Source: an uncultured Thermoleophilia bacterium | Lineage (GTDB): Bacteria > Actinomycetota > Thermoleophilia > UBA2241 | DNA length: 64,000 nucleotides | Direction: 5' to 3' | Assembly: GCA_963702475.1 (NCBI GenBank) | Contig: CAVPCT010000009.1 | Coordinates: forward strand, 160,001 to 224,000 | Shown here: one piece after another, positions 2,127 through 62,058 of the stretch | How the letters are laid out: every line of letters starts with the position of its first letter | Position numbering within the stretch: the first letter of the stretch is position 1 | Position numbers and translations under genes: made by a program | Notes under the pieces: generated by a model | The model's database searches: none | Told to the model about the DNA's origin: nothing | What the model saw: only the letters and a program-made list of their open reading frames with translations

Positions 2127-3425
2127 TCAGCACCCCGGCTCGAGCGCCGCGACGGCCTCCCGGCGGCGGCGCAGGAGCATGTGGACGGCGACCAGCACCA
2201 GCGCCGCCACGTTGATCACGGCGGCGATCACGAAGGCCTGCGAGAAGCTCCCGTCGCTGGCCTCGGCGACTTGGGCGGCGAGCCGCGGTCCGGCGTAGGC
2301 CGCCACGGCGATGGTCAGGAACATGATGCCGAAGTTCACGCCGAGGTGCCGCGCGCCGAAGGCGTCCGCAGTGACCGGTCCCATGAGCGAGAGGAACCCG
2401 CCGTAGCAGAGGCCGACGGTCGCGAGCGCGAGCACCACCATGAAGTAGGCCGTGGCCTGCGAGAGCACGACGAGGGCGAGGGCGGCGAGCACCAGCATGG
2501 AGGCGAACACGGGGTACCGCCCGATCCTGTCCGACAGGCTGCCCCACCCGACCTTGCCCAACACCATGCCGAGGGCCACGAAGCCGACGACCACGCCGGC
2601 CGCCTGCGGGGAGATGCCGAGGATCTCCTGGGCGATGGGGGACGCGTGCCCGAGCACCATCATGCCGGAGAACGTGCCGGCCACGAAGAGGGCGAAGAGC
2701 ACGTAGAAGTCGGGCGTGCGCAGCATGCCGCGCCAGTCGAGGTCGGCGTCCGTGTCGTCGCCGTCGATGGCCGGCACGTCGACCAGCGGCTCTTCGTGGG
2801 CGTCGATGTGGGGGGCGGTGTACACGAGCCGCGAGCTGAGTGCGATGGCGACGAAGAAGAACATGCCGAGGGCGACCAGCGTGACCGTGAGCCCGTACCT
2901 GTCGATGAGCAGGGCGGCGAGCGGGGCGCACACGACGCCGCCGACGCCGTAGCCGGCGGTGAGGATGCCCGAGGCCATGCCGCGGCGGTCGGGAAAGAAG
3001 CGGATGACGTTGGTCATGGTGCCGCCGGGGTACACGGCGCCCATGCCGAAGCCGGCGAGAAAGGAGAACCCGTACACGCCGGCCAGCGAGTGCACGAAGG
3101 CCAGGCACACGAGACCGAGGCCGATGAGCGCGCCGCCGACGATGATCACGGTGCGCGGTTTGACGTACTGCTGCGCCTTGCCGGCGACGATGCTGGCGAT
3201 GGCGCCGGCCCCCAGAAGGGCCGTGAACGACAAGGCGATGTCGGCCGTGGACCAGCCGGCGCCCTCCGCGAGCGGCCTCTGGAACACGCTCCAGGCGTAG
3301 CCGATGCCGGCGCAGAGGCTCGCCGCCACGCAGGCGGCGAGGGCGATCCAGCGGCGCCGGCCCGCGGTGACCGGCGCGGCGTCTGGGGCTGGGTCGGTGG
3401 TTGGGGCGGGGTCAGCGGCGCGCAT
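2127..3425 (-). CDS. MFS transporter, OFA (oxalate/formate antiporter-like) family
   Basis: About 12 hydrophobic segments; YAWSVF, FFPDRRGMASG, WGSLSDRIGR, FGARHLGVNFG motifs. Confidence 0.85.
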   Translation of the reverse strand: MRAADPAPTTDPAPDAAPVTAGRRRWIALAACVAASLCAGIGYAWSVFQRPLAEGAGWSTADIALSFTALLGAGAIASIVAGKAQQYVKPRTVIIVGGALIGLGLVCLAFVHSLAGVYGFSFLAGFGMGAVYPGGTMTNVIRFFPDRRGMASGILTAGYGVGGVVCAPLAALLIDRYGLTVTLVALGMFFFVAIALSSRLVYTAPHIDAHEEPLVDVPAIDGDDTDADLDWRGMLRTPDFYVLFALFVAGTFSGMMVLGHASPIAQEILGISPQAAGVVVGFVALGMVLGKVGWGSLSDRIGRYPVFASMLVLAALALVVLSQATAYFMVVLALATVGLCYGGFLSLMGPVTADAFGARHLGVNFGIMFLTIAVAAYAGPRLAAQVAEASDGSFSQAFVIAAVINVAALVLVAVHMLLRRRREAVAALEPGC

Positions 3426-4224
3426 ACGCCGCGATCTGGTCGTCGGTGAGGTAGCCGGGGTCGGCCTGGGCGCCGTAGCCGCCGCCGTCGATGACGACGA
3501 TCTGGCCGGTGATGTTGGCGGCCAGCGGGCTGGCGTAGTACACGGCCAGGGAGGCGACCTCCTCGGGCTGCGACAGGCGACCGAGCGGCACGAGCGCGGT
3601 CGCCGTGTCCATGCTGTCGCCGATGATGCCGAGCGTCATCTCGGTGAGCACACCGCCGGAGGCGATGGCGTTGACGGTGATGCCGTACTCGGCCCACTCC
3701 ATGGCGGCCTGGCGGCTGATCGCCGCCGCGGCGCCCTTGCTGGCGCTGTACATCGGCGAGCATAGTGGCTTGCGCATGCCGACGATGCCGGCGATCGAGG
3801 CGAAGTTCACGATGGCGCCCTTCTTGCGTCGCTTCATCGACTGGCCCACGACCTCACGCATCACGAAGAAGAGCGCTTTTGCGTTGATGGCGAAGACGTC
3901 GTCCCACTCCTGCTCGGTGACGTCCTCCGCGTAGCACTGCGGGCCGACGGCGGCCGGCTGGATGAGCACGTCGATCTCGCCCATCTCGGCGCGGATCTTC
4001 TCCACAAGCGGCTTGATCTCCGCGATCTTGCGCAGGTCCTGCGGGTACGCTTTGACCTCGCCCTTCTTCGCGAGCTCGGCCGCCGACGCGGCCAGCCTGT
4101 CCTCCATGATGTCCACCATGGCGACCTTGGCGCCGCTGCTGACGAGGATATCGGCGATGGCGTAGCCGATGCCGCGCGCCGAGCCGGTGACGACGGCGAC
4201 CTGGTTGTCGAAGCGGATCTCCAC
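3412..4224 (-). CDS. Short-chain dehydrogenase/reductase
   Basis: TGSARGIG, YSASK, VVIDGG. Confidence 0.9.
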   Translation of the reverse strand: MEIRFDNQVAVVTGSARGIGYAIADILVSSGAKVAMVDIMEDRLAASAAELAKKGEVKAYPQDLRKIAEIKPLVEKIRAEMGEIDVLIQPAAVGPQCYAEDVTEQEWDDVFAINAKALFFVMREVVGQSMKRRKKGAIVNFASIAGIVGMRKPLCSPMYSASKGAAAAISRQAAMEWAEYGITVNAIASGGVLTEMTLGIIGDSMDTATALVPLGRLSQPEEVASLAVYYASPLAANITGQIVVIDGGGYGAQADPGYLTDDQIAAYARR

Positions 4225-4286
4225 GGGGACTCCTTCTCGCGTGTACGCGTGCGCGCTGGCTTGTCGTCGTGCGCCTCCCGAGGTGC

Positions 4287-4335
4287 TTGACAGCGGGGAG
4301 GCCGGGGCCCAGTATATCGTAGAGCGAGCGCTCTA
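4287..4335 (+). promoter_or_regulatory. Promoter with palindromic operator TAGAGCG-AG-CGCTCTA
   Basis: TTGACA at 4287, CAGTAT 17 bp later, perfect 7-bp inverted repeat at 4320-4335 between divergent genes; TetR gene nearby. Confidence 0.55.
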
Positions 4336-4408
4336 TCTAGGGTCGTTCCGCGCCACTCAGCAAGATAGGCAGCAGACCACTGAGACCCAGTCGGGGAGGT
4401 CACACGCG

Positions 4409-5438: not shown

Positions 5439-6179
5439 GTGAGCGAGCAGGCAGCCGTGAGCGCCATGAGCCAGGCCCTGACCGACATGCAGGAGCGCGT
5501 CGCCGGGCGTGAGCTGCCTGCGACCTCGCAGGACCGGGAGCTGACCGACATCCGCCGGCGGCAGATCGTCGACGGCGCCAGCGCGGTGCTCTTCGAGCAG
5601 GGCTTCCATGGCTGCTCGATTCGGGACATCGCACGCGCCTGCGAGATGTCGATGGGGCAGCTCTACCACTACATCTCCTCGAAGGACGACATCCTGTTCT
5701 TGATGCACGTCTACAGCCAGGAGATGTGGCACGAGCACCTGGCCGACGCGGGCTTCGACGCGATCGCCGACCCGGTGGACAAGCTCGAGCACGGCTTGCG
5801 GATCACGATGAAGTACCTCTCGGAGAACCGCGACCTGTACCAGTTCCTGTACACGGAGTCCAAGTACCTCGACCGCGAGCACCTTCGCGAAGTGCTGGAG
5901 CTGGACGACCAGAACGTGGTCGGCTTCTACCGGCACCTGCTGGCGCAGATCCCGGGCTTCGCCGACCGTGACCACGCCGACCTCGCCGCCAACCTGGTCG
6001 CGTTCGTCTGCGTGTTCCTCTCGCTGCGCGGCTGGAACCTGCACCTGGGTGGCGAGGCCGACGTGGACGCCGCCGTCGACTACCTCGTCGATTTCGTGTT
6101 CCGCGGCCTCGGCATCGAACGCGCCGTCAGGCAAGGCGACGGAGCGCAGACGACACACACTTCGGAGGAAAGCGCATGA
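5439..6179 (+). CDS. TetR-family transcriptional regulator
   Basis: [51 protein letters not shown]. Confidence 0.9.
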
Positions 6180-8498
6180 TGGTGATCCGCAAGGCGGCCG
6201 TGCTGGGCGCAGGCCTGATGGGCGCCACCGTGGCGGCCCAGCTGGCCAACGCCGGCATCCCGACGGTGGTGCTCGACCTGCCGCCGACCGAGACGGCCGA
6301 GAACGGCCTCGAAGGCGCTGGCCAAGGCGCGGCCGGCGCCGCTGGCCCACAAGGACCGCCAGGCGCTGCTCACCGCCGGCAACTTCGACAGACGACCTCG
6401 GACTGCTGGCCGACGTCGACTGGGTCGTCGAGGCGGTCGTCGAGAACCTCGAGGTCAAGACGGCGCTGTTCGCGCGCGTGGCCGAGCGCCTGAACGACCG
6501 CGCGATCGTCACGACCAACTCGTCCGGCCTCTCGGTGAACGCGATGGCCGAGGCCCTGCCGGAGGCGCTCAGGCCGAGGTTCTTCGGCGCTCACTTCTTC
6601 AACCCGCCGCGGTACATGTACCTGCTGGAGGTCATCCCGAGCGAGTACACCGACGCGGCGCTCGTGGATGCCTTCGCCGACTTCGCCTCCCTGCGCCTCG
6701 GCAAGGGCGTGGTGCGCTGCAACGACGCGCCCATGTTCGTGGCCAACCGCATCGGCATGTTCACCACCGTGCACGCGATGAACAAGATGGGCGAGTTCGG
6801 GCTGACGGTCGAAGAGGTGGACGCGGCCAGCGGGCCGGCCATCGGCCGCGCCGTGACGGCGACCTTCGGCACGGCGGACCTGGCCGGCTCGGACATCCTC
6901 GCGCACAACGTCGCCGCGCACGCGAGCACGGCGAGCGACGACGAGATGCTCGAGCTCTGGCAGGTGCCGGACTGGGTGCTGGCGCTCATCGACAGCGGCC
7001 GCACCGGCAACAAGTCCGGCAGCGGGTTCTTCAAGGACCGCCGGGCCCTGACCATCGACCCGGCGACGCTGGAGTACCGGCCGTTCCAGAAGCCGCGGCA
7101 GGCGAGCCTGCAGGCGGCGGCCGGCATCAAGGACCCGGTGGCGCGCGTCGCAGCCGTCATCTCCAAGGATGACGAGGCCGCGCGCTTCGCCTGGGAGATC
7201 CTCGCCGGCACGATGCTGTACGCGGCGCACCGCATCCCCGGCATCTGCGCCGACATCACCGCCGTCGACGACGCCATGCGCTGGGGCTACGCCTGGGACC
7301 TGGGACCGTTCGAGCTCTGGGACGCGCTCGGCGTGCCGGAGACGGTCGCGCGCATGCGCGAGGACGGCCGCCCGATCCCGGCGTGGGTCGAGGAGCTCGC
7401 CGCGTCCGAGACAGCCGTCGTTCTACCTGCGTGAGGACGGCCGCACGCTCATCTGGGGCCCGGGCCAGACGGAGCACAAGGCTCTGGCGCCGCGCGCGCG
7501 GAGCATCCAGCTCGCGCGGCTCAAGGCCACCGGCCACGTGCTGGCCGAGGACGAGCACGCCAGTCTCGTCGACCTCGGAGACCGCGTGGCCTGCATCGAG
7601 TTCCACACCAAGGCCAACATCGTCGGCGAGGGCGTGCTGGCCTTCATCGAGGCGACGCTCGCCGAGGCCGGGGGCGACTACGACGCGCTCGTCATCGGCA
7701 ATCAGGGCGCCCACTTCTCCGGCGGCGCCGACCTCAAGATGATGGTCGGCAAGATCGAGGCCGAGGACTGGGACGGCATCGACGCCACGCTGAGGAACGC
7801 GCAGCGCGCCAGCATGGCGCTCAAGTACGCGCCGGTCCCGGTCGTCGCCGCCCCGTTCGGGCGCGTCCTGGGCGGCGGTCTCGAGGTCTGTCTGCACTGC
7901 AGCCGCGTCCAGGCCCACACCGACGTCAGCATGGGCCTGGTCGAGACGGGCGTCGGCCTCGTGCCTGCGGCCGGCGGCATCAAAGAGACCGTGGTCCGCG
8001 CCATGGCGTTGCACAGCTGGCGAGGCCATCATGTTCCCGATCCTGCGCGAGCCCTGGGAGGCCATCACGATGGCCAAGACGTCACGCTCCGCGCTCGACG
8101 CCGCCGAGATGGGGTACCTGCGCGGCGGCGACGGCATCACCATGGACCGCGACAGCGTGATCTACGCCGCAAAGCAGGTCGCGCGCAGCATGGCCGACGC
8201 CGGCTACCAGCCGCCGGTGCCGCCGGCAATCACCGTGCAGGGCCGCGACGGCCTCGCCAACTTCCACAAGCTCCTGCACATCGTGCGCTGCGGCGACTTC
8301 ATCAGCGACCACGACCAGTTCCTCTCCGACCAGGTGGCGTGGGTGATGTGCGGCGGCGACGTGGACCCCGGCAGCGTGGTCGACGAGCAGTACCTGCTCG
8401 ACCTGGAGCGCCAGGCGTTCCTCACGGTGTGCCGCACCGAGAAGACGATGGAGCGGCTGCAGGCGATGCTGACCAGCGGCAAGCCGCTGCGCAATTGA
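6176..8498 (+). CDS. 3-hydroxyacyl-CoA dehydrogenase/enoyl-CoA hydratase (FadN-like), frameshifted near 6311, 6391, 7415 and 8015
   Basis: [58 protein letters not shown] and the C-terminal TSGKPLRN are spread over several frames. Confidence 0.85.
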
Positions 8499-8524: not shown

Positions 8525-9705
8525 ATGAGAGAAGCTGTGATCGTGTCCTCGGTGCGCACGCCGGTCGGCAAGGCGCCCCGAGGGCTCGCTGAAGACGGTG
8601 CGGCCGGAGACGCTGGCCGTGACCGCCATCCGCGCCGCCATGGAGCGGGCGCCGGGGCTGGACCCGGCCGAGATCGACGACATCGTCTGGGGCTGCGCGT
8701 TCCCCGAGGCCGAGCAGGGGCTCAACCTGGCCCGCTACGTCGGCATCCTGGCCGGGCTGCCCGAGAACGTGCCCGGCGTCACCGTGAACCGGTTCTGCTC
8801 GTCGGGCCTGCAGGCCATCGCCTTCGGCGCCCAGGCGATCATGAGCGGCATGGCCGACGTGATCCTGGCCGGCGGCACCGAGTCGATGTCGTGCGTGCCC
8901 GGCGGCGGCAACAAGGAGATGCCGGACGACGCCGTGGCCGCCGTCGGCCGCCGACGCGTACACCAGCATGGGCATGACGGCCGAGAACGTGGCCGAGCGC
9001 TACAACGTGAGCCGCGAGGAGCAGGACGCCTTCGCGGCGCAGAGCCAGGCGCGGGCGCTGGCGGCACAGGCCGAGGGCCGCTTCGACGACGAACTCGTGC
9101 CGGTCCCGGTGGTGCACCGGCGGCCCGGCCCGGGCGGGACGATCGTCGAGTCGACGACGATGTTCACCGCCGACGAGGGGCCGCGCCCGGGCAGCACGCC
9201 CGAGGTGCTGGCGAAGCTGCGCACGATCTTCAAGCAGAACGGTACCGTGACCGCCGGCAACTCGTCGCAGACGAGCGACGCCGGCGCGGCCGCCGTACTG
9301 ATGAGCGGCGAGAAGGCCGAGGCCTTGGGCCTCGAACCGCTCGCCGTGTTCCGCTCCTTCGCCTGCTACGGCGTCGACCCCGGCGTGATGGGCATCGGGC
9401 CGGCGTTCGCCATCCCGAAAGCCCTCAAGATCGCCGGCATCGGCATCGACGACGTCGACCTGGTCGAGCTCAACGAGGCCTTTGCCAGCCAGGCCGTGTA
9501 CTGCGTCCGCGAGCTCGGCCTGGACCCCGAGATCGTCAACGTCAACGGCGGCGCCATCGCGCTCGGGCATCCGCTCGGCGCGACCGGCGCCAAGCTCACG
9601 GCCACGCTGCTGCACGAGCTCAAGCGCCGCAAGGGCCGCTACGGCGTCGTGAGCATGTGCATCGCCGGCGGCCAGGGCGCCGCCGCCGTGTTCGAGCGCG
9701 TCTGA
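8525..9705 (+). CDS. Acetyl-CoA acyltransferase (thiolase), frameshifted near 8585 and 8945
   Basis: [52 protein letters not shown]. Confidence 0.9.
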
Positions 9706-25253: not shown

Positions 25254-25257
25254 CCCG

Positions 25258-40405: not shown

Positions 40406-40409
<4 letters not shown>
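39522..40409 (+). CDS. HAAT (Liv-type) ABC permease, LivH-like
   Basis: GAIYALVGLGYVTIYRTSRVVNFAQG; hydrophobic. Confidence 0.9.
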
Positions 40410-43175
<2,766 letters not shown>

Positions 43176-43223
43176 CCCTCAAGGACCTGCCGATCAGGCA
43201 ACAAAGCGAGACAAGGGGGAGAG

Positions 43224-49337: not shown

Positions 49338-49377
49338 CCCTCGCGACGCGCCCGTGGGGGCGCGGCCGGCGGCCGGG

Positions 49378-50476: not shown

Positions 50477-50498
50477 CGCGGTGCCTGCCTTCCCGACG

Positions 50499-50546
50499 TG
50501 TCAAGTATGTTGAAGTTCGGGTCACCTGCGTTGTCAAGTCCGTTGA
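50499..50546. repeat. Two copies of TGTCAAGTnnGTTGA, 33 bp apart
   Basis: 50499-50513 and 50532-50546, in the divergent intergenic region. Confidence 0.6.
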
Positions 50547-50658
50547 TGAAAAAGTCCTGTAAAACATCTGAACACGTGACAGCATCGGTGAAGAATCGAC
50601 GCCGGTCCGTCGCAGGCTGGTCACAGCCGCGGGCACCGGCAGGGAGGGTGATCTCACC

Positions 50659-51864: not shown

Positions 51865-51919
51865 CGGAGTACCGGCGCAGTACGGGGCCGCCGGCAGGAT
51901 CACGTACGAAGGGGGGAAG

Positions 51920-53332: not shown

Positions 53333-53338
53333 AGAGTC

Positions 53339-55412
53339 ATGACATCGACCAACACGAAGAGGAGCACGGCGCGGCGCCTCGTCCTTGCGTGCGTGCTGAG
53401 CGTGCTGGCGGCATTCTGGCCTGCGGCGGCCGGCGCGGCTGCTCCGTCATACGACGAGGCCGTGAAGCAGCTCGTCAGCCTCGGGTACCCGCAGTCTGTC
53501 GAGACGTACTTGAGCTCCCTGGGCGCCAACCCGCTCGGCTTCCGTCTCGCCGGCACCGAGGCCGAGCACGCCGCGAGCGAGTACGTCGCGGCGGAGCTCA
53601 GGGACATCGGCCTGAAGAACGTGCGTCTGGAACCGGTGCCGGTCGACGCCTACGAGCTGCTCGGGGCAAGCGTCACGGTCGGCACGCGGAGCATGACCGC
53701 TTCGCAGTTCCCCGGCATCCCCGGCACGCCGCCCGAGGGCATCACCGGCGGCGTCGTGTACGTCCACGACGGCACCGCTGCCGACTTCGATGCCGCCGGC
53801 GATGTGCACGGCAAGATCGTCCTGGTGGACTCGGCCCTGGAGTACTTCTGGCTGAACTCACCCGGCGCCGAGGCAACGGTGCGCGGCGCCACAGCGGTGG
53901 TCTACACCTACGGTCCGCACAGCTACCCCTGGTACGCCATCGCCCCAGATGCGCTGGGCACCAACGACGGCGAGTACATGGACTCGTGGGTGCCGCTTGT
54001 CTATCTCTCCCGGCAGGACGGCGACTGGCTCAAGGGGCAGCTCGAGGATGGGCCCACTACGGCGACCGTCACCAGCTCGGTGAAGGTCACGCCGCACGAC
54101 TTCGACCACCCGGAGGCCGGCGGCGTGGGCTACAACGTGGTGGCCGAGCTGCCGGGCACCTCGGACGACGACTCCTTCGTGCTGGTCACGTCGCACCTGG
54201 ACGCGCACTTCCGCTGCGGGCTCGACGACACCGGCGCCCTGGTGTCGGAGCTGACCATGGCCAAGGCCATGGTCATGAGCGGAGCGAAGCCCAGGCACAC
54301 GGTCGTCTTCCTCTTCACGTGCGGCGAGGAGTACGGCTACGGCAACGCCTACTTCGACTACCTGGCCGGAGCCTGGTGGGCCATCTCCCACACCCATCCC
54401 GACTGGGCCGGGGAGGCCGTCGCCATGCTCAACCTGGAGTGCTTCGCCCGCCCCGGCGTGGCGACGGCGGACACGACGCCCGACCTCGCGCGCTGGCTGC
54501 GTGCCGTGGCCAAGCAGAGGCCGGGATTGGTGCCGTGGGGCCTCGAGGTGTCACCCGTCAAGAGCAGCTGGGACGACGGCTGGCCCTTGCTGGCCGCGGG
54601 CGTCCCCTCCGTGACGCTGGCCGCGACGGGCGACGACTTCTGGGAGCGCTACCACTCCACCTGGGAGACCAAGGAGACCGTCGACTGGCAGTACCTCGGC
54701 AAGCTCACCCGCTTCGTCGGGGCGCTGCAGCGCAGCCTGGACACGGGCCTGCTGCCGTACGACCTGCAGGCACGGGCTCGGGGTATCAAGGCCTCCGTGC
54801 CGGCCGATGAGCTGCGCCTGGCCGGCGTGCCTGCGGCCGAAGTGAGACGCGTCACGCAGGCGGCCAAGGGCTTCACGGCGGCGGTCGACCGGTTCACCGC
54901 TCGCAAGAGCGCCATCCCGGCGTCGCGCGTGCCGGACGTCAACGAGGGCCTGCTCTCCGTGATCGACGACGTCTGCTCGAACCTCACGGGGCTCAGCGCC
55001 TGGGAAGACACCGTGTACCCGCACCAGCAGGTGCTGTGGGACGTCCTCAGTCTCAACGCCACGCTGGCCGAGCTCGACCGCGCGACCCCGCGTCCGCAGA
55101 AGGCGCTCAAGGCGCTCACGAACGTCGGCAAGACAGCATACGGCCTGGCGTTCAGTCCCGAGGTGTACGCGCAGGACCTCGAGCGTCTCGAGCCCGACTA
55201 CCCGGTGCTCACGTGGGGCGCGCTCGGCCACCTCGCGCCCCAGCTCAACGTTCTTGAGCAGTACCGCATGATCGAAGCGGGGCAGTACGCGTCCGCAGTC
55301 GGCGGAGCTCAAACCGATGCGGGATGCCGACCGCACCGAGCTCGTGGCGCGGGTCAGGAGCCTGGACTCGCTGCTGCGGAGTCTCACCAGGCAGGTGAAC
55401 GCCCTGCGCTGA
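53339..55412 (+). CDS. Secreted M28-family peptidase with PA domain, frameshift near 55300
   Basis: Signal peptide; YNVVAEL, SHLD, DDTG, GEEYG, NLE, YHSTWET; the probable true tail ...RQVNALR* is in another frame. Confidence 0.8.
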
Positions 55413-55447
55413 TGGGCGGTGCCACCGGCGTCCGCGCCGGCACGGGT

Positions 55448-55496
55448 CCGGAGACACGAGAGAGGCGCCCGCGAGGGCGCCCCTCCCGTGCTCCGG
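55448..55496. terminator. Hairpin between convergent genes
   Basis: GGCGCCC-GCGA-GGGCGCC core with extended flanking pairing. Confidence 0.45.
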
Positions 55497-55518
55497 CTCT
55501 GTCTCGCCTGCCGGTGGA

Positions 55519-56638
55519 CTACTTGCCCTGCACCGAATCGACCATCGCCTTCACGTTCTCGAACTTGGCGTTGGGCGGGATGGCGCAGCCCATCGCCATG
55601 ATGAACCCGTCCGGGCCGACCTCGGTCGAGCAGCCGGTCGCAGTAGGCCTTGACCTCGTCCACCGTGCCGAGCGTCAGCATCGCCGGTGGCACGTCGCCC
55701 ATCAGGCACATGTGGCCGCCGAGGACCTTCTTGGCGCGGAAGAGGTCGGTCTGCCCGTCGGTCGCCAGCACGCACGTCCGCGCCGGCAGCTCCAGCAGAC
55801 GCTCGATCTCGCGGTCCCAGTCGGCGTCGTAGTGCAGCATCGGGATGCCGCCCTCCTCGGCCACGATCTCCACGAGCTCCTTCATGTACGGCCAGACGAA
55901 GCGGTCCCAGAGTTTGGGGGAGAGGAACTGCGGCGCGGTGCGCCAGCTCCCGACCCAGTAGCCGAACGGCCCGATGGCGCGGATCATCTGGCGCGTCTGC
56001 TCGCGCTTCTCGGCCATGATGGCCTGCATCACCGCCTCGACCTTGTCCGGACGCGTGAACAGGTCCATGGTGAATTCCTGGATGGTGCGGCCGCCGCAGA
56101 GGTGCTCGTACGGGTGGTCGACGGTCGAGGCGCTGAACACGACGTAGCCGCGCCCCATGAACTCGCCGACCCAGCGCGGCCCCTTCTGCTGAAGCTGCGC
56201 GCCGGCCGCGGCGGCCTCGCCCAGGTACGTGCCGATGTACTGCCCGAACCACGGACCCCAGCCCATCTCCAGGATGCGGTCGTAGTCCTGCGGCTGGATG
56301 CGGACCTGCTCGTCGAGCTGCCAGAGGGCGTCGTCGGGCAGGTCGCGGCCGGGGAGCTTCATCGGGGCCAGCCAGAGCATCCCGAGGATCGCGGGGGCAT
56401 AGCTGGCCCACTGCACGGAGTCGACGTCGCCGAGCTTCTCCGTGGCGGCGAGCATCGTCTGGCCGGCCACGTCGAGGTCGGCGCAGAACTCCGAGTACTT
56501 CACGCCCATCGTGTTGCAGGCAAAGGTGTCCAGGACCAGGGAGAGCGGCACGCGGTCGGGCGTGCCGCAGTGGATCGCGGTCTGGATGCGGCCCATGCGC
56601 TCGAGGAAGAGCGGGTTGGGGGGCGGTGTCTCGGCCAT
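55519..56638 (-). CDS. UroD-fold corrinoid methyltransferase, frameshift near 55626
   Basis: TPDRVP, DRFVWPYMKELV, LHYDADW, CLMGDVP, then GFIMAMGCAIPPNAKFENVKAM in the shifted frame. Confidence 0.8.
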
Positions 56639-56639
56639 G

Positions 56640-57272
56640 TCAGCTCACCCCCAGCACGCTCTTGGCGACGGTCACGCCGTCCTGCGCTGTCTTGCAGTAG
56701 TGGTCGGCGCTCACGTAGCGGGCGGCCTCCTCGGTCATCGGGCCGCCCCCCACAAGGATCGTGACCTTGTCCCTGAGGCCGGCGCGCTCGATGGTGGCGA
56801 CGGCCTCCTTCATGCCGTCGAAGACGGTGGTGAGCAGGGCGGACATGCCGACCAGCGTCGCGTGGCTCTCCTGGATCGCGTCGACCCAGTCCTGGTGGTC
56901 GACGTCAACGCCCAGGTCGACGACCTTGATGCCGTTGGACGACAGCACCGTGCCGGCGATGTTCTTGCCGAACTCGTGGATGTCACCCTTCACGGTGCCG
57001 AGCACCATGGTGCCGACGGCGTTCCCGGATGCGTCGGCGAGCGCGTCCTGCAGAGGAGCGCTGGCCTGCTTGAAGATCTCGCCCGCGTAGATGAGCTCCG
57101 ACAGATAGTACTCGCCGGCCTCGAACCGGTCGCCGACGACGGTCATGCCCTCCTGGAGCTCCCCCAGGATGGCCATGGGCGCCTCTCCCGCGGCCAGCTT
57201 CTCCCGGACGAGGCCCGTCGCCTCGTCCGGCTGCAGGTCGCCCATCGCCTGGGCGAGTGGGGAGCGTGTCAT
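56640..57272 (-). CDS. Corrinoid methyltransferase protein
   Basis: GTVKGDIHEFGKN, DLGVDV, VGMSALLT, LVGGG. Confidence 0.92.
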   Translation of the reverse strand: MTRSPLAQAMGDLQPDEATGLVREKLAAGEAPMAILGELQEGMTVVGDRFEAGEYYLSELIYAGEIFKQASAPLQDALADASGNAVGTMVLGTVKGDIHEFGKNIAGTVLSSNGIKVVDLGVDVDHQDWVDAIQESHATLVGMSALLTTVFDGMKEAVATIERAGLRDKVTILVGGGPMTEEAARYVSADHYCKTAQDGVTVAKSVLGVS

Positions 57273-57415: not shown

Positions 57416-58345
57416 GTGCGAGCGCTGACGATAGGCGAGCTCGAGCGGGAGAGCGGCGTACGCCGCCGCACGATCTACTACTACGTGCACCATGGGCTGC
57501 TGCCCGAGGCGCAGAAGTCCAGCCCGAGCCGCGCTCTCTACACCGAGGCCCACCTCGCGCTCCTGCGCGACATCGAGGAGTTGCGCACGCAGGGGCTGCG
57601 TCTCGCCCGGATCCGGGAGAGGCTGGCCGGCCGTGTGCGGGCGGCGGGAGAGAACGGGGTGGACCTGGTCGCCCTCCGCGACCAGGAGACCCGGGAGGCA
57701 ATCCTTGCCGCCGCGACCCACAGCTTCGCGCACAAGAGCTACAAGGGCACGCGCATGGCCGACCTCGTGGCCGAGCTCGGCATCACCCCGCAGCTGCTGT
57801 ACTCGCACTTCGCCACCAAGCGCGAGCTCTTCGTGGCCTGCTACAAGGTGGCCGTCCGGTACATGGCCGGCGTGGTGGTGCCTTTGGCCGGCCAGAGCGA
57901 CGACCCCGCGGTGCACCTGGTCTGGTACATGTACGCCGACAAGGGCATCAAGGCGTTCGCGCCGGACATGTTCATGCTGGCGGTAGAGGCCGCCCGGCAC
58001 GACGAGGCGGCGCGGCGCGACCTCCTCGAGGCCTACGAGACGATCTTCCGGGACCTCCTCACCGATCTGCGGCGTCTGCGCGGCGCCGACGACCGGCCGC
58101 CGTTCTCTGACGAGCTCATCAGCCACGGTCTCTTCGGCGCGTTCGAGCAGATGCTCGCACGCGCCGCGCTCGACGATGAGTACTCGTGGCGCGAGGTCGT
58201 GCGGACGACCCTCGGCATCTTCCTCGCCGTCGCCGCCGGGTACGGCGGTGACCTCGACCTGGGCGCCTTGGTCGCGCGCTACGACACCCTGCTCGACGAG
58301 GTCGCCGAGCTCCCGCCGCCGGTGCCGCTCGAGCTGCAGACGTAG
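57416..58345 (+). CDS. MerR-HTH + TetR fusion regulator (copy 3)
   Basis: LTIGELERESGVRRRTIYYYVHHGLLP + TREAILAAATHSF...LYSHFATK. Confidence 0.85.
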   Translation: MRALTIGELERESGVRRRTIYYYVHHGLLPEAQKSSPSRALYTEAHLALLRDIEELRTQGLRLARIRERLAGRVRAAGENGVDLVALRDQETREAILAAATHSFAHKSYKGTRMADLVAELGITPQLLYSHFATKRELFVACYKVAVRYMAGVVVPLAGQSDDPAVHLVWYMYADKGIKAFAPDMFMLAVEAARHDEAARRDLLEAYETIFRDLLTDLRRLRGADDRPPFSDELISHGLFGAFEQMLARAALDDEYSWREVVRTTLGIFLAVAAGYGGDLDLGALVARYDTLLDEVAELPPPVPLELQT

Positions 58346-58428: not shown

Positions 58429-58463
58429 TTGACAACATCTCTAGTCCTCGTTTAGAAACGTTG
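58429..58463 (+). promoter_or_regulatory. Promoter of the second ferredoxin/flavoprotein pair, same architecture as 39418
   Basis: TTGACAA-N5-CTA-N7-TTTAGA-A-ACGT-TG. Confidence 0.55.
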
Positions 58464-58533: not shown

Positions 58534-58755
58534 TTGAACGCCATCGCCATCGACCGTGACGCCTGTACCAGCTGCCAGACCTGCTACGAGGTCTGCTTCA
58601 TGGACGTCTTCCGCTGGGACGACGCCGAAGACCAGCCCGTCGTGGCCTACGCGGAGGATTGCGTCGGCTGCAACAAGTGCGAGCTCGAGTGTCCTGCCGA
58701 GTGCATCGCGGTGATCATCGACTTTGCCGGCATCTACTGGCCGGAGGTGGTGTGA
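58534..58755 (+). CDS. 2x[4Fe-4S] ferredoxin (AprB-like)
   Basis: CTSCQTCYEVC and CVGCNKCELECP; paralog of 23275. Confidence 0.9.
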   Translation: MNAIAIDRDACTSCQTCYEVCFMDVFRWDDAEDQPVVAYAEDCVGCNKCELECPAECIAVIIDFAGIYWPEVV

Positions 58756-58756
58756 G

Positions 58757-60469
58757 GTGGCGACCCTGGACTCTCTCGGCACCGTGTTCAGCGCCGACCT
58801 GCTGGTCGTCGGCGGGGGCATCGCCGGCCTCTCGCTCGCGATCCGCGCGAAGGAACTCGACCCCGAGGTCGACGTGCTCGTGCTCGACAAGGTCGTCAGC
58901 GGCTGGGGCGGCAAGGCCAACAAGGGCGGCGGCAACATCGTGTTCATGGACGCGGCCGCCGACAAGGTCCTCGACTTCCACGTGAACAACGTCGGCGAGT
59001 ACCTCGAGGACCAGGACCTGCTCCAGAAGTTCGCCGAGGAGTCGCGGCCGGACCTGGAGCGCCTCGAGAGCTGGGGCGTGCACATCTATCGCGACGACGC
59101 CGGCGAGCCCAGGTACGTGCGCTGGCTGCCGGAGCACCCCTGGTGCCTCGCCGTCCTGGACCAGGACCTCACGCTGAACCTCGCCAAGCACGCGCGCAAG
59201 CTCGGCGTGCGCTTCCGCGACCGCGTCGAGATCGTCGACCTGCTCAAGGACGGCGAGCGCGTGTGCGGGGCGATCGGCTTCGGCATGGTCGAGGGCGAGT
59301 GCGTCATCGTCCGCGCCGGCGCGGTCGTCCTCGCCAACGGCAACCAGTGCTTCAAGCTCATGCCGCGCTGGTCGAGTGCCGGCGGCGAGGGCATCGCCGC
59401 GGCCTGGCGCGCCGGCGCCGTCATGCGCAACGCCGAGTTCGGCAACTTCATCAACTGGGTCTTCGCCGACACCAAAGAGGTCTGCCAGGGTGCCGAGGAC
59501 TGCCTCTACAACGCCAAGGGCGAGAACATCTCCAAGCGCGTGCGGCCCACGCTCGAGTCGGACGTGCACTCCAAGGAGGTCGTGGAGTGGTGGAAGGAGA
59601 TGAAGGCCGGCAACGGTCCCATCGTCGCCAACATGATCGAGAACTACGTGAACAACGAGATCGTGCCGGCCTTCCACGAGGACAAGCTCGCGGTCAGGCC
59701 GGTCTCGATGAAGTTCTGGGGCCTCACCATCGGCAAGGCCATGGCGGCCGCCACGGTCAAGGGCCCCATGCAGCCGGTCATGCCCGGCCTCAACGCCGAG
59801 CTCTCGCCGGTCAAGGTCGACCACCTCATGGCGACGACGGTCTCCGGCCTCTTCGCTATCGGCGACACCGGGTACGGCGGCTCGTGCATCGCCGGCGCGG
59901 TGCCGGCGCCGCCCGGCCGCATGCGTGGCTCGGGCCTGGGCTTCGCCGTGTTCAGCGCCGTGCAGTGCGCGCCGGCGGCCGTGGCCGCGGCCAGGGCCGG
60001 CGCGGGCGCGCCTGACGCCGGCCAGGCCGAGGCGCTCAAGGCGCGCATCGTGGCGCCGCTCGGGCGCAGCGGCATGCAGCCTGTCGAGATGGTCCACGCC
60101 GTGCAGGACGCCATGGTCCCGGTCGGCTACAGCATCTACAAGAGCGCCGACCGCATGAGCGAGGCCCTCGACAAGGTCCTCGCGCTCAAGGAGCAGGTGC
60201 CGCAGCTCTCGGCCGGCGACCCGCACCACCTGGCCGCGTGTCACGTCGCTGAGGCCATGGTGCTCGGGGCGGAACTGTTCTACAGGGCGTCGCTGGCCCG
60301 TGAGGAGACGCGCGGCTGGCACCTCCGCGAGGACTTCCCCGAGCGCGACGACGCCCACTTCCTCAAGTGGATCGAGATCCGCGATGTCGCCGGGGAGATG
60401 GCGCTCTCGCTCGAGGACGTGCCGGTCAGCACCTATCCGCTGCAGCCGGGCGCGGCTGACGCCGTCTGA
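58757..60469 (+). CDS. SDH/Frd/AprA-superfamily flavoprotein, paralog of 23526
   Basis: LLVVGGGIAG, GWGGKANKG, AWRAGAVMRNAE, PGRMRG, REETRGWHLREDFPERDD. Confidence 0.85.
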   Translation: MATLDSLGTVFSADLLVVGGGIAGLSLAIRAKELDPEVDVLVLDKVVSGWGGKANKGGGNIVFMDAAADKVLDFHVNNVGEYLEDQDLLQKFAEESRPDLERLESWGVHIYRDDAGEPRYVRWLPEHPWCLAVLDQDLTLNLAKHARKLGVRFRDRVEIVDLLKDGERVCGAIGFGMVEGECVIVRAGAVVLANGNQCFKLMPRWSSAGGEGIAAAWRAGAVMRNAEFGNFINWVFADTKEVCQGAEDCLYNAKGENISKRVRPTLESDVHSKEVVEWWKEMKAGNGPIVANMIENYVNNEIVPAFHEDKLAVRPVSMKFWGLTIGKAMAAATVKGPMQPVMPGLNAELSPVKVDHLMATTVSGLFAIGDTGYGGSCIAGAVPAPPGRMRGSGLGFAVFSAVQCAPAAVAAARAGAGAPDAGQAEALKARIVAPLGRSGMQPVEMVHAVQDAMVPVGYSIYKSADRMSEALDKVLALKEQVPQLSAGDPHHLAACHVAEAMVLGAELFYRASLAREETRGWHLREDFPERDDAHFLKWIEIRDVAGEMALSLEDVPVSTYPLQPGAADAV

Positions 60470-60544
60470 TGGAGAAGACGCTCATCGCCGGGGGCGACCC
60501 GCACGGCCCGGCGGCGCCGGGGAAGCCCTGAACGGGGACGCGCG

Positions 60545-61474
60545 ATGCGCGTTCTCAGCATAGGCGAGCTGGAGGCCGCCAGCGGCGTCTCCAGGCAGGC
60601 CATCTACTCCTACGTGCGCGCCGGCATGCTGCCGGCCGCCCAGAAGGCGAGCCCCAGCCGGGCGCTGTACACCGATGACCACCTCGCTCTGCTCGAGGAG
60701 ATCGAGGAGCTCAGACGGCAGGGGCTGCGCCGGTCGGTCATCAAGGCCAGGCTCGAGGGGCGGGTCCGCGAGGCCGGCAGCAACGACGTCGACCTCGTCG
60801 CCCGCCGCGATCAGGAGACCCGCGATGCCATACTGGCCGCCGCCACTCGCAGCTTCGCGACCAGGGGGTACAAAGGGACGCGCATGGCCGACCTCATCGA
60901 GGAGCTCGGCATCACGCCACAGATCCTGTACGGCTCCTTCGCCACCAAGCAGGAGCTGTTCGTCGCTTGTTACAGGGTCGCCGTCCGGTCCATGAACCGC
61001 ATTCTCAAGCAGCGGTTCGAGGCCGTGGACGACGAGGCTGAGATACAGATCTGGGGCATGTACGCGGACACCGGCATCAGGGCGTTCGCACCTAATCTGA
61101 TGATGCTGGCGCAGGAGGCGGCCCAGCACGACGAAGAAGCGCGGCGCGACCTGCGCGAGGCGTTCGCGACCATCACCGAGCAGACGGTGCAGTACTTCCG
61201 CGGCTTGCGCCGCTCAGCGGACGACCCACCCTTCTCAGACGAGCTCGTCACGCACGCGCTCGTCGGCGCGTTCCAGCAGATGTACGCGCGCGCCGCCCTG
61301 GACGACGAGTACTCCTTGCGCGACGTGATGCGCAACAACCTCGGCCTCTTCCTGGCCGTCAGGGCTGCGTACCGGGGGGAGCTCGATCTCGGCGAGCTGA
61401 CCACCCGGTACGGAGCCCTGATCGACGAGGTGTCGCACCTGCCGCCGCCGGCTCCCGAGGAGTTCACGCCGTGA
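60545..61474 (+). CDS. MerR-HTH + TetR fusion regulator (copy 4)
   Basis: LSIGELEAASGVSRQAIYSYVRAGMLP + TRDAILAAATRSFATRGY; closely resembles copy 2. Confidence 0.85.
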   Translation: MRVLSIGELEAASGVSRQAIYSYVRAGMLPAAQKASPSRALYTDDHLALLEEIEELRRQGLRRSVIKARLEGRVREAGSNDVDLVARRDQETRDAILAAATRSFATRGYKGTRMADLIEELGITPQILYGSFATKQELFVACYRVAVRSMNRILKQRFEAVDDEAEIQIWGMYADTGIRAFAPNLMMLAQEAAQHDEEARRDLREAFATITEQTVQYFRGLRRSADDPPFSDELVTHALVGAFQQMYARAALDDEYSLRDVMRNNLGLFLAVRAAYRGELDLGELTTRYGALIDEVSHLPPPAPEEFTP

Positions 61475-61583
61475 GTCGGGGAGCCGCGCGCACCGTCGCG
61501 CCGGGCCGGGTGGCGGGCAGGGCTCGAAGGAGACATCGCTCCATGAGATGAACGTGCGGACCGGCCGACCGCAAGGAGGCTGC

Positions 61584-62058
61584 ATGTCATCAGGACTCAC
61601 CGACGCGATCCTCGCCATGGACGAGGCCGAAGCCCTTCGCCTGGTCACGGAGATGCTCGACAGCGGCGCCGATCCCGACGCTGTGCTCGACGAGGCCTAG
61701 AGAGCCATGACCGAGCTCGGCGACCGCTTCGCGCGCGAGGAGGCTTTCATCCCCGAGCTCATCATGGGCGGCGAGATCATGAAGGGCATCGCCGCCCTCC
61801 TCAAGCCGCACCTCGGGGCCACGGCCGAGACGCAGAAGCGCGGCACGATCGTCCTCGGCACCGTGCACGGCGACATCCACGACATCGGCAAGGACGTCGT
61901 CGTGATGCTTCTGGGGCGACGTCCCAGGCTCGCCGATGGTCACTGGCGCGCCCGCTGAGGTCAGGGACTATGCCAAGGTGGTCATCGACGACTTCGGCGA
62001 GACCGGCGGGCTCACCATCGACGGCGCCAACTCCATCACCGATGAGGCCCGGCCGGGC
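61584..62058 (+). pseudogene. Decayed corrinoid protein gene fused by deletion to the 3' end of a UroD-fold methyltransferase gene
   Basis: In-frame TAG at 61698; after GDIHDIGKDVVVML the DNA switches near 61906 to a FWGDVPGS...IDDFGETGGL.IDGANSIT tail homologous to 47368-47520. Confidence 0.85.

Follow-up and report, generated by a model that had tools for sequence, protein, structure and literature searches.

In Eubacterium ramulus and Flavonifractor plautii, flavonoids are broken down by a chalcone isomerase (CHI), a flavanone-cleaving or enoate reductase (Fcr) and a phloretin hydrolase (Phy). The anaerobic phloroglucinol pathway comprises PGR, a short-chain dehydrogenase/reductase (SDR), the cyclase-family Mn enzyme DPGC, TfD of the 3-hydroxyacyl-CoA dehydrogenase (3HCDH) family, TAL of the BKACE family and a thiolase (PMC10470551). 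Because CHI, FCR and PHY sets from metagenome-assembled genomes (MAGs) of anoxic soils are already in print (PMC8084988), the concept as such is known. Here we analyse a 64-kb stretch of DNA (the window; C9:160001-224000 of genome G000) from an uncultured Thermoleophilia bacterium (Actinomycetota). About 45 of its genes resemble enzymes for the oxygen-independent breakdown of plant phenolics, namely flavonoids, tannin-derived trihydroxybenzenes and methoxylated aromatics, and its core operon encodes a CHI-like protein, three Phy-type hydrolases and an EthD-domain protein. Judged by sequence, most of these genes appear to encode variants of known enzymes, and the best explanation seems to be that several separately regulated gene sets for oxygen-independent plant-phenolic catabolism lie side by side. 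We put the probability that the region is a phenolic catabolic supercluster centred on phloroglucinol-type rings at roughly 0.6, and have far less confidence in any single substrate assignment. Positions below are those of the window; contig coordinates are marked as such.

Results

The host genome comprises 4.3 Mb in nine contigs (93.8% complete, 6.5% contamination). Because the G+C content is 0.65-0.74 along the whole window, plain lists of open reading frames (ORFs; 186 of at least 120 aa) are swamped with spurious frames. We called genes by third-position G+C (GC3), checked them against Pfam (54 ORFs) and NCBIfam (48 ORFs), sought solved relatives by sequence searches of the PDB, and compared folds using AlphaFold2 (AF2) models and Foldseek. 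All gene classes named by a first-pass annotation of this DNA were recovered at or near the places where it had put them (Table 1); its list had passed over two pairs of ferredoxin and FrdA/AprA-like flavoprotein, the EthD protein, a CocE/NonD hydrolase, a GlcDEF-like trio and the regulators. The window holds the three DAPG_hydrolase (Phy) genes of the genome, its single CHI-like gene, both FrdA-like/ferredoxin pairs, two of three genes for Fe-S flavoenzymes of the old yellow enzyme (OYE) type and four of five MerR-TetR fusions; all three Phy genes, the CHI-like gene and the sole EthD gene of its type lie within 6 kb. As the window contains all or most genome copies of these gene types, their clustering is far beyond chance.

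The core operon (23275-31250) consists of eight genes spaced by -4 to 25 nt, in the order ferredoxin, FrdA/AprA-like flavoprotein, Phy1, CocE/NonD, CHI-like, Phy2, EthD and Phy3. The relationship of the CHI-like protein to bacterial CHI, which the first-pass annotation had claimed, is true but distant. A single-sequence comparison with the E. ramulus enzyme (CHIera) gave E 5e-9, a profile built from 43 family members matched it at E 7.7e-32 over 238 of 253 profile positions, and the AF2 model (pLDDT 89.8) matched 4c9s in Foldseek at E 6e-19 and TM 0.77. The two-domain ferredoxin-like fold homologous to CHIera is present in profile, model and structure comparison alike, and with both profile and fold matching, a lack of similarity between this protein and bacterial CHI can be set aside. 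His26 aligns with His33, the catalytic base of CHIera (PMC8361940, PMC9694015), and is invariant in the 43 family members; Thr71 and Trp75 are retained as Thr64 and Trp68.

Several features of the protein speak against an isomerase that acts on flavonoids. In the profile alignment, CHIera residues ~86-131 (about 45 residues, including the lid 106-130) have no counterpart, Gln101 and Arg125 fall within this missing segment, and Tyr48, Gln69 and His73 are replaced by His41, Arg62 and Cys66. Tyr48, Gln69, Thr71, Gln101 and Arg125 bind the A-ring and carbonyl of the substrate in CHIera, with residues 106-130 as the lid (PMC8361940, PMC9694015). The second domain of the CHI-like protein has additional residues compared to CHIera. 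At the sequence level, these features would seem to resemble the inactive 'branch B' of PMC8361940, whose members have a restructured alpha3-5 region and an extra loop between alpha6 and beta6, and reportedly lack CHI activity on chalcones (data not shown in that paper). The assignment as a canonical flavonoid CHI is thus weakened by the missing lid, His for Tyr48 and Arg for Gln69. We assign the protein to the bacterial-CHI fold family, the catalytic His being retained, and treat it as a candidate rather than a demonstrated chalcone isomerase.

Phy1-3 scored 231, 239 and 213 bits against Pfam DAPG_hydrolase (PF18089; gathering cut-off 22.7). All three carry the motifs WWFxWH, V(T/V)E(D/N) and HNV(H/K)E, which align with solved Phy and whose His and Glu residues we take to be Zn ligands. 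Phy2 is related to the Mycobacterium abscessus phloretin hydrolase 5xey (E 7e-37, 130 bits) and to PhlG 3hwp (E 4e-26, 95 bits). In view of their 98, 95 and 89 bits against the NCBIfam PhlG equivalog, with its cut-off of 600, Phy1-3 are not PhlG orthologues, which is a further point against a straightforward assignment. The AF2 model of the EthD protein (pLDDT 78) contains two ferredoxin-like domains, and Foldseek matched it to coproheme decarboxylase/chlorite dismutase (E 5e-6) and to E. ramulus CHI (TM 0.51-0.55). According to this model, EthD and bacterial CHI would share a general tandem ferredoxin-like architecture only; kinship of EthD with the CHI family was tried by profile comparison and rejected (probability 0.45%, E 0.13). 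EthD is unusually conserved, with homologues 63-94% identical across phyla. In the databases there is also a 406-aa protein (P0117) with EthD and DAPG_hydrolase domains and 92% identity to the window EthD; it may have arisen by natural fusion or else reflect two neighbouring genes read through as one.

The neighbourhood of the CHI family was surveyed by tblastn of the window proteins onto 80 CHI-family loci with flanks of up to 10 kb, some of them clipped at contig ends. Phy2-like genes were found in 28 loci, Phy3-like genes in 26, MerR-TetR fusions in 25, EthD in 21, the flavoprotein in 15, the FADox1, CCG and FADox2 genes of the GlcDEF-like trio in 14, 12 and 10, Liv genes in 9-14 and a corrinoid protein in eight. 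EthD, Phy3, CHI and Phy2 are contiguous in 20 of the 80. In the closest relatives the order is Phy1-CHI-Phy2-EthD-Phy3, with the Fer4/FrdA-like genes immediately before Phy1, and among other Actinomycetota it is EthD-Phy3-CHI-Phy2. The end of one contig in a Desulfobacteraceae MAG carries EthD-Phy3-CHI. The loci L066 and L077 bear 'CTSoil' labels of the kind used for MAGs in PMC8084988. CocE/NonD homologues occur in three loci (none at ≥40% identity) and OYE2-like genes in seven (one at ≥60%), suggesting that both genes are additions of this genome. AthL, ADP-forming acyl-CoA synthetase (ACD) and CHI-paralogue genes form triplets in L042, L043 and L053, the last with OYE2 beside the CHI paralogue, and AthL, CHI and OYE genes occur together in a deltaproteobacterial MAG (L081).

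The CHI-like gene is patchily distributed in the genus (14 of 54 genomes including G000; five of the 21 of high quality) and was found in two of 401 genomes of a phylum-wide sample; the closest named public records with such a gene (84-90% identity) are uncultured Thermoleophilia MAGs. All 13 CHI-positive relatives in the genus also carry FADox2 and the FrdA-like flavoprotein, which are present in 17 and 19 of the 53 relatives overall and in four and six of the 40 CHI-negative ones, and in nine of the 13 the three genes lie within ~20 kb on one contig. Because kin are not independent, we read this co-occurrence as linkage, not as statistics. In G420, the CHI cluster is accompanied by the Liv genes, the second flavoprotein, both methyltransferase pairs and even the 49.7-55.4 kb genes, although these are arranged differently from the window. 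The earlier expectation that the sub-clusters co-occur in relatives is borne out by the contiguous cassette, by the genus relatives and by G420.

It is conceivable, if quite unlikely, that the EthD-Phy-CHI-like-Phy cassette and its flavoprotein degrade or detoxify non-flavonoid acylphloroglucinols, such as microbial 2,4-diacetylphloroglucinol or plant acyl- or formyl-phloroglucinols. Just as improbably, acyl groups would then be taken off one after another by the Phy paralogues, with the pair of ferredoxin-fold proteins serving as tautomerases or isomerases of the polyketone ring. The DAPG_hydrolase family does include the diacetylphloroglucinol hydrolase PhlG, which is the sole named NCBIfam match; three Phy paralogues share one operon, the minimal cassette of many relatives has no reductase, which also counts against a flavonoid route, and the CHI-like protein lacks the lid and flavanone-binding residues (PMC8361940). 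Phy2, however, is nearer to phloretin hydrolase than to PhlG, the catalytic His of the CHI-like protein is invariant, and the cassette is linked to a C=C-reductase-type flavoprotein and to AthL/OYE genes in several lineages, all of which argues against this reading.

The PDB relatives of the first FrdA-like flavoprotein are SdhA/FrdA (1e-28) and the AprA-like PAPS-reductase alpha (7e-21). By analogy with fumarate-type C=C reduction, we propose that it may act as an enone reductase. OYE1 and OYE2 combine an OYE-type FMN domain, a [4Fe-4S] motif of the form CxxCxxC...C (Cys378/381/384/395 and Cys373/376/379/389, respectively) and an FAD/NAD(P) domain, by their architecture the layout of the enoate-reductase class, which includes the flavonoid EnoR (PMC7862272). 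As OYE2 is an addition of this genome, the reductase that travels with CHI and Phy is the ferredoxin-coupled flavoprotein, and not an Fe-S OYE; OYE2 homologues lie near CHI in seven of 80 loci. A CHI-dependent route is also made less compelling by the report that Fcr alone cleaves flavanones without CHI (PMC8398226). Matches of the FrdA-like proteins in many relatives were flagged with one TGA, and selenocysteine was considered and rejected: since a direct alignment of eight loci with the second paralogue contains no internal stop, the flag reflects a natural stop read through.

We consider it highly improbable that the Fe-S OYE, SDR and FAD_binding_2 proteins serve a reductive modification of flavonoids or isoflavonoids, by equol-type reduction or dehydroxylation, rather than a ring fission that supplies carbon and energy. 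As we presume, the Coriobacteriia enzymes that lead from daidzein to equol are members of the same three classes. They appear in the enzyme list of PMC8398226. Yet full breakdown is indicated by the tight linkage with BKACE, thiolase, an ATP-forming synthetase and three C-C hydrolases, and the flavoprotein of the window is paired with a ferredoxin and has a domain of the SdhA type at its C terminus.

Two copies of a 25-bp palindromic motif flank the MerR-GyrI gene, one 93 nt ahead of OYE2 and the other 85 nt ahead of FADox1; none of 100 shuffles gave a match. Because of this shared predicted operator, OYE2 and the GlcDEF-like genes probably form one regulon, which by sequence appears separate from the core operon, whose own MerR-TetR regulator gene is transcribed divergently. 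The GlcDEF-like trio adjoins the CHI cluster in 10-14 of the 80 loci, and the Liv-type ABC system, found there as often as the Liv counts above, is the likely importer of the cluster. The MerR-TetR regulators have an N-terminal MerR helix-turn-helix (HTH) fused to a complete TetR. There are five paralogues, four beside catabolic units of the window and one at C9:130.7 kb, and this double-HTH fusion is the one that adjoins CHI in 25 loci. A similar 16-mer was noted at 39474-39489 and 58441-58456, in the AT-richer promoter regions of the LivH/Liv importer and the second ferredoxin pair; it is weak, with two matches, a number reached by one of 100 shuffles.

A pair of genes for a methyltransferase I (MTI) and a corrinoid protein (CP) is present twice in the window. 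For the UroD-type protein at 46404-47567, the nearest PDB relative is CdmB (E 6e-36), an MTI that is related to the O-demethylases MtvB, OdmB, VdmB and MtoB and is itself haloalkane-specific (PMC13222342). Its place beside CdmB, in a clade with O-demethylases, is in line with the corrinoid-dependent O-demethylation that had been proposed. Pfam revealed no methyltransferase II (MTII) or activating-enzyme (AE) domain among the window proteins, the only part of the genome in which they were sought. Given the 25 corrinoid-protein matches of the genome and the acetyl-CoA synthase gene CdhC, it is plausible from the gene content that O-demethylation feeds the Wood-Ljungdahl pathway. Genes for COX1 and cytochrome bd oxidases are present in the genome as well, so that the organism need not be an obligate anaerobe. 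The word 'anaerobic' in the first-pass annotation suits the enzyme chemistry, and not necessarily the host. A truncated corrinoid-protein gene (61584-61958) follows the last MerR-TetR regulator. It is 68% identical to 45656-46294 over its first part and includes the end of B12-binding_2 alone within its ORF, and may be another broken gene.

The scheme proposed for the left module (2-17 kb) begins with an AthL-type hydroxytransferase. This protein matches PDB 4v4c over residues 139-987 (2-868 of the solved protein) at E 4e-301 and keeps equivalents of Ser175 (the Mo ligand), His144, Asp174 and Tyr404, residues whose roles we take as given. In this group, Mo is coordinated by Ser (PMC10100899). 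Both the window protein and the copy on C3 have an N-terminal extension of about 130-138 aa (17434-17847 and C3:572601-572996), 36-42% conserved in relatives that include L110-L117 and the deltaproteobacterial MAG L081; it had no Pfam match even at E 5, and an assignment to SCP2 was discarded, as the Atlas gave only AthL fragments and one SCP2 cluster whose value of 0.79 did not reach the threshold for a lead. Three points count against a transhydroxylase of the known type: Phe stands at the position of Arg153, there is no BthL-like gene within 1.5 kb, and the protein is one of 14 paralogues found by tblastn. A Pfam scan detected no Fer4_11 protein in the window. The three closest paralogues (66, 60 and 57% identity) likewise have no BthL-like gene within 1.5 kb, and seven of the ten others have one. 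The AthL-specific N-terminal Pfam domain has 16 matches in the genome, eight of them on C9. AthL-like molybdoenzymes are greatly expanded across C2, C3, C4 and C9, and MobA/MobB molybdenum-cofactor and molybdate ABC genes lie among the C3 copies.

The window contains SDRs, a 3HCDH domain (within a frame-broken FadB), BKACE and thiolase. Pfam found no cyclase-family DPGC (PF04199) in it; three are encoded elsewhere, at C3:580 kb and C9:91-92 kb. The left module has instead a crotonase-type protein whose best solved relatives are 6-oxocamphor hydrolase and an Anabaena beta-diketone hydrolase, enzymes of CoA-independent retro-Claisen cleavage of beta-diketones; it is about 70 residues longer than these (329 vs 257-263 aa). 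Twelve regions from the class were picked for holding a crotonase-type gene, so that counts among them describe the neighbours of this gene and not the frequency of a module. Six of them combine one or two crotonase-type genes with 3HCDH, SDR, cupin, BKACE and ACD, four also with AthL, and none with a cyclase homologue. G000 itself has such a set at C2:354-362 kb, in the order 3HCDH-SDR-cupin-AthL (60%)-BKACE-two crotonase-type genes-ACD and likewise with no cyclase. This recurrent module appears to mirror the PGR-DPGC-TfD-TAL pathway (PMC10470551) with a crotonase-type protein in the place of DPGC, and the six regions are the best evidence that crotonase-type hydrolases might stand in for it.

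For the window itself, several observations weigh against this role. Its crotonase-type protein is 32-36% identical to the module-type copies and has full-length homologues of 68-95% identity in many phyla. Its own subgroup (68-80%) occurs in Pantoea, Acerihabitans, Streptomyces, Rhodoplanes, Rhodopseudomonas and Aggregatibacter, with no known tie to AthL, and two orthologues in the class (G539 and G505, 77-78% aa) occur without the module; a plasmid collection gave no match. No phloroglucinol reductase was among the PDB matches listed for the window SDRs (24 for 3412-4224), which are at most 38% identical to the SDRs of a cluster at C3:573-583 kb. The window BKACE stays below all NCBIfam BKACE equivalog cut-offs; it is 65-73% identical to the BKACE proteins of the recurrent modules. 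Since the C3 cluster has the full canonical set (AthL paralogue at 66%, two SDRs, 3HCDH, cyclase, cupin, BKACE), the left module may serve another substrate. The proposal that the organism uses different enzyme families at several steps is, with such a set present, only partly right. A further set lies at C9:89-94 kb (L101), between IclR regulators and an aldehyde:ferredoxin oxidoreductase (AFOR). It comprises two cyclase-family genes, an SDR, a thiolase, a crotonase, ChsH2-like/thiolase-like genes and a CoA transferase of family III.

The genes for FadB, thiolase, OYE1, SnoaL4, the HpaB-like protein and ACD are collinear with those of G030, a member of another family, at 72-84% nt. As a block, the left module was not found in 24 same-genus genomes searched, nor does it lie beside CHI in the 80 loci, which weakens the view that it belongs to a conserved CHI neighbourhood. 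The HpaB/AbfD-family protein is nearest to 4-hydroxybutyryl-CoA dehydratase/vinylacetyl-CoA isomerase, with 1u8v as its best PDB match, and has Cys at residues 197, 205, 232, 350 and 369 only. As we presume the [4Fe-4S] Cys/His ligands of AbfD, 4-hydroxybutyryl-CoA dehydratase, to lie near residues 99-103 and 292-299, that reading was dropped: there is no Cys at the expected cluster positions.

Compared with the intact G030 proteins, FadB is read in frames 2>3>1>2>3, thiolase in 2>3>1 and ACD in 1>2>3, which amounts to eight +1 changes (FadB: ~6305-6315, ~6385, ~7411 and 8005-8034; thiolase: 8571-8587 and 8921-8953; ACD: 15552-15557 and 16147-16149) and is a point against the proposed scheme. 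The domains of ACD are present across three frames, with no intact reading frame. Both ACD breaks come after near-identical 16-base stretches encoding YLE(G/R)V. There is a real but minor chance that these beta-oxidation and ATP-forming genes are pseudogenes, redundant with the C2 and C3 modules, and that the left module no longer conserves energy. The breaks are confined to three genes, with none in the 4.3 kb of OYE1-SnoaL4-HpaB-like in between and none at a homopolymer, and intact paralogues exist for thiolase (C9:90 kb) and ACD (C9:123 kb and C5:463 kb). On the other hand, GC3 stays at coding level (0.8-0.99) throughout the broken genes, and split genes in other regions of the genome (AFOR, 3HCDH, Mo enzymes) would fit assembly errors.

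The unity of the region is a separate matter. At least eight regulators and several gaps of more than 200 nt divide it into separately controlled units, and the genes at 48144-55200 have no evident tie to phenolics, both of which count against a single system. It is somewhat unlikely, in our estimate, that independent catabolic operons have simply gathered in an accessory part of the chromosome with 23-39 kb as the one functionally coherent portion, the left module serving resorcinol, other cyclic 1,3-diones or CoA-ester metabolism and the 48-55 kb genes amino-acid or polyamine metabolism. Besides the regulators and gaps, this would fit a left module whose closest counterparts lie in G030, G539 and G505, the OYE1-SnoaL4-HpaB-like genes with no assigned role, the canonical phloroglucinol cluster elsewhere, the different order in G420, and a crotonase-type protein that is widespread in unrelated aerobes. 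It fits less well with the AthL-ACD-CHI-paralogue triplets, the AthL, CHI and OYE genes of L081, OYE2 beside a CHI paralogue in L053, the 49.7-55.4 kb genes beside the CHI cluster in G420 and the co-occurrence in all 13 genus relatives. Of the claim that one region gathers all steps from uptake to ATP, the co-location is confirmed; unity is not, given the regulators, the apparently unrelated 48-55 kb genes and a left module that does not adjoin CHI in relatives.

Scans for tRNA and Rfam families in the window gave no match, and no integrase or transposase was among the 54 ORFs scanned with Pfam. With even G+C, no tRNA and no Rfam match, the region is a cluster and not an island in the transfer sense in which it had been so called.

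Very long ORFs overlap on opposite strands at 53339-56764 (+) and 54551-56638 (-); GC3 and Pfam single out as real genes the M28 peptidase on the plus strand, which extends to ~55200, and on the minus strand the UroD methyltransferase at 55560-56638. Just outside the cluster, at 403-1596, are small toxin-antitoxin-like genes, namely an HTH_3/HTH_26 protein, a Gp49-like (HigB-type) ORF and a nucleotidyltransferase-domain ORF.

Table 1. Predicted genes and regulatory sites of the window, with the matches on which each assignment is based
Feature	Position	Strand	Evidence
MFS transporter, oxalate/formate-lactate type	2127-3425	-	Pfam MFS_1 1e-42; NCBIfam SfMCT 340 bits (cut-off 320); start codon uncertain
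SDR oxidoreductase, divergent from crotonase-type hydrolase gene	3412-4224	-	adh_short_C2 6e-54; best PDB matches generic FabG-type
Crotonase-fold beta-diketone hydrolase-like protein, 329 aa	4409-5398	+	PDB 6-oxocamphor hydrolase 8e-33, Anabaena beta-diketone hydrolase 4e-29
TetR regulator	5439-6179	+	TetR_N 1e-10; 69% identity to G030 counterpart
FadB-like 3-hydroxyacyl-CoA dehydrogenase/crotonase	6176-8498	+	NCBIfam Staph_FadB pieces; tblastn of intact 792-aa G030 protein; four +1 breaks
Thiolase	8537-9705	+	Thiolase_N/C across two ORFs; G030 388-aa protein in frames 2, 3, 1; two +1 breaks
OYE1, Fe-S flavoenzyme, enoate-reductase/2,4-dienoyl-CoA-reductase type	9737-11836	+	Oxidored_FMN 4e-41, Pyr_redox_2 2e-26; 65% identity to G030
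SnoaL_4 (NTF2-like) protein	11882-12559	+	Pfam 3e-12; 80% identity to G030
HpaB/AbfD-family protein	12594-14084	+	PDB 1u8v 1e-68, 6vjr 4e-63; 87% identity to G030
ACD, fused form	14206-16322 (end approximate)	+	ATP-grasp_5, CoA_binding_2, Succ_CoA_lig over two ORFs; G030 712-aa protein; two +1 breaks
BKACE, candidate triacetate acetoacetate-lyase	16373-17188 (start approximate)	+	Pfam BKACE 2e-86
AthL-type molybdopterin hydroxytransferase large subunit	17434-20403	+	PDB 4v4c E 4e-301
Two tandem SDRs	20630-21391, 21403-22161	-	adh_short_C2 1e-61, 8e-63; PDB matches generic
MerR-TetR fusion regulator, divergent from core operon	22195-23151	-	MerR_1 + TetR_N
Small 2x[4Fe-4S] ferredoxin	23275-23529	+	Fer4
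FrdA/AprA-like FAD flavoprotein	23526-25253	+	FAD_binding_2, Succ_DH_flav_C
Phy/PhlG-type C-C hydrolase Phy1	25258-26112	+	DAPG_hydrolase 1e-68
CocE/NonD-family alpha/beta hydrolase	26109-27869	+	TIGR00976 243 bits
Lid-less bacterial chalcone-isomerase-like protein, 260 aa	27885-28667	+	CHI profile, AF2, Foldseek
Phy/PhlG-type C-C hydrolase Phy2	28684-29523	+	DAPG_hydrolase 4e-71
EthD-domain protein	29549-30337	+	EthD 1e-13
Phy/PhlG-type C-C hydrolase Phy3	30351-31250	+	DAPG_hydrolase 4e-63
Predicted MerR-type promoter/operator, copy 1, before OYE2	31381-31405	+	25-bp palindromic motif
OYE2, Fe-S flavoenzyme, enoate-reductase type	31498-33570	+	Oxidored_FMN 1e-47, Pyr_redox_2 1e-25
MerR + GyrI-like (ligand-binding) regulator	33626-34570	-	Pfam
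Predicted MerR-type promoter/operator, copy 2, before GlcDEF-like genes	34677-34701	+	same 25-bp motif
GlcD/GlcF/GlcE-like trio: FAD_binding_4 (FADox1), CCG/Fe-S, FAD_binding_4 (FADox2)	34786-39315	+	Pfam; weak glcD/TfrB NCBIfam matches
Liv-type ABC importer: permease, fused permease + two ATPases, binding protein	39522-44465	+	Pfam/NCBIfam
MerR-TetR regulator	44593-45513	+	Pfam
Corrinoid protein	45656-46294	+	B12-binding
UroD-type methyltransferase I	46404-47567	+	URO-D; PDB CdmB 6e-36
Aminotransferase, GAF regulator, saccharopine-dehydrogenase-like protein, amino-acid permease, M28 peptidase	48144-55200	+ for M28 peptidase	Pfam
Second UroD-type methyltransferase	55560-56638	-	Pfam; NCBIfam MtaA/CmuA weak
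Second corrinoid protein	56640-57245	-	Pfam
MerR-TetR regulator	57416-58345	+	Pfam
Second ferredoxin + FrdA-like flavoprotein pair	58534-60469	+	Pfam; 48% identity to first flavoprotein
MerR-TetR regulator (fourth)	60545-61474	+	Pfam

Discussion

Family membership, folds, conserved residues, gene order, co-occurrence and the shared operator are observed in this region, and from them we infer every substrate and every reaction of the following scheme. The lid-less CHI-like protein might, via His26, open an oxygen heterocycle beside a phloroglucinol-type ring. The ferredoxin-coupled FrdA-like flavoprotein would reduce the resulting enone, as might, in this genome, the separately controlled OYE2, and the Phy-type Zn hydrolases would cut the acyl-phloroglucinol C-C bond, yielding a phenyl-C3 acid along with a ring of the phloroglucinol type. 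The substrate range is probably broadened by having three Phy paralogues and, in EthD, another two-domain protein of ferredoxin-like fold. The Liv-type ABC system is the likely route of uptake, and the two pairs of MTI and corrinoid protein could demethylate methoxylated aromatics, with acetyl-CoA synthase as a possible sink. In the left module, the AthL-type hydroxytransferase would isomerise trihydroxybenzenes to phloroglucinol, an SDR would reduce it, and the crotonase-type beta-diketone hydrolase would then open the ring; 3-hydroxyacyl dehydrogenase, BKACE and thiolase could lead to acetyl-CoA, and the ADP-forming synthetase could make ATP.

A bolder proposition, which we advance tentatively and think rather unlikely to hold in full, joins two parts. 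The EthD/lid-less CHI-like/two-Phy cassette, which occurs across phyla, would be an undescribed route for splitting phloroglucinol-type polyphenols, by heterocycle opening and direct C-C hydrolysis, with an FrdA/AprA-like flavoprotein replacing the OYE-type Fcr where reduction is needed. Crotonase-superfamily beta-diketone hydrolases would be the missing dihydrophloroglucinol ring opener where PGR/TfD/TAL-type genes lack the cyclase DPGC, alongside an AthL that has no beta-subunit and is extended at its N terminus. Our literature search found no study tying Thermoleophilia to phloroglucinol catabolism, nor one tying beta-diketone hydrolases to phloroglucinol. New, as variants on known systems, are the Thermoleophilia host, the conserved EthD-Phy-CHI-Phy cassette, its flavoprotein partner, the AthL copies that lack a neighbouring beta-subunit gene and the pattern of a crotonase in place of the cyclase.

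Gut Firmicutes are the source of nearly all known enzymes of this kind. The region is a useful but unproven lead, offering clonable candidates from an abundant, uncultured class of soil actinobacteria: the conserved cassette of CHI-like, EthD and Phy genes, a novel candidate for the reductase, AthL forms with no beta-subunit gene, and crotonase-type hydrolases. The last of these could explain PGR-bearing genomes without DPGC, a gap that has been remarked on for SAR116 (preprint 10.64898/2026.07.17.739263). The 'enzyme latch' view of how carbon is stored depends in part on whether soil and sediment polyphenols are degraded in the absence of oxygen (PMC10470551, PMC8084988). A confirmed scheme would provide better marker sets for metagenomic surveys of polyphenol turnover.

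Compared with known systems, the region reads, by its sequence, like a merger of the CHI/Fcr/Phy route of gut Firmicutes, phloroglucinol fermentation, the Pelobacter transhydroxylase and the O-demethylases of acetogens. Defining features of several of these are missing, namely the CHI lid and binding residues, a PhlG equivalog score, a BthL neighbour, the cyclase DPGC and an intact ACD. With E. ramulus and F. plautii it shares the CHI fold with its catalytic His, Phy-type hydrolases and Fe-S flavoenzymes of the enoate-reductase class. It differs from them in the absent lid and altered A-ring-binding residues, the three Phy paralogues with EthD, the ferredoxin-coupled FrdA/AprA-like flavoprotein as the conserved reductase, and the high-G+C actinobacterial host. 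Reductase and Phy are reported to be co-transcribed in Clostridium butyricum (PMC11868195), and here, as far as the genes tell, they likewise share one operon.

The phloroglucinol cluster of Clostridium scatologenes (PMC10470551) also brings together SDR, 3HCDH-family, BKACE, thiolase and MFS genes; the window has a crotonase-type hydrolase and no cyclase-family DPGC, and its 3HCDH is part of a FadB-like fusion. ATP would be made by an ADP-forming synthetase here, compared to phosphate acetyltransferase and acetate kinase in C. scatologenes (Fig. 8 legend of PMC10470551). The AthL homologue matches AthL of Pelobacter acidigallici (AthL/BthL, PDB 4v4c) over its full length and in the Ser, His144, Asp174 and Tyr404 equivalents, and departs from it by its N-terminal extension, the Phe at Arg153 and the absence of a BthL gene within 1.5 kb. 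The O-demethylase and Cdm systems of acetogens, as outlined in PMC13222342, consist of MTI, CP, MTII and AE. The window resembles them in having a UroD-superfamily MTI beside a B12-binding CP, and differs in that it contains no MTII or AE and that its nearest relative, CdmB, takes haloalkanes and not methoxylated aromatics. In the number of paralogues, the 25 corrinoid-protein matches of this genome are close to the 26 systems of A. dehalogenans (PMC13222342).

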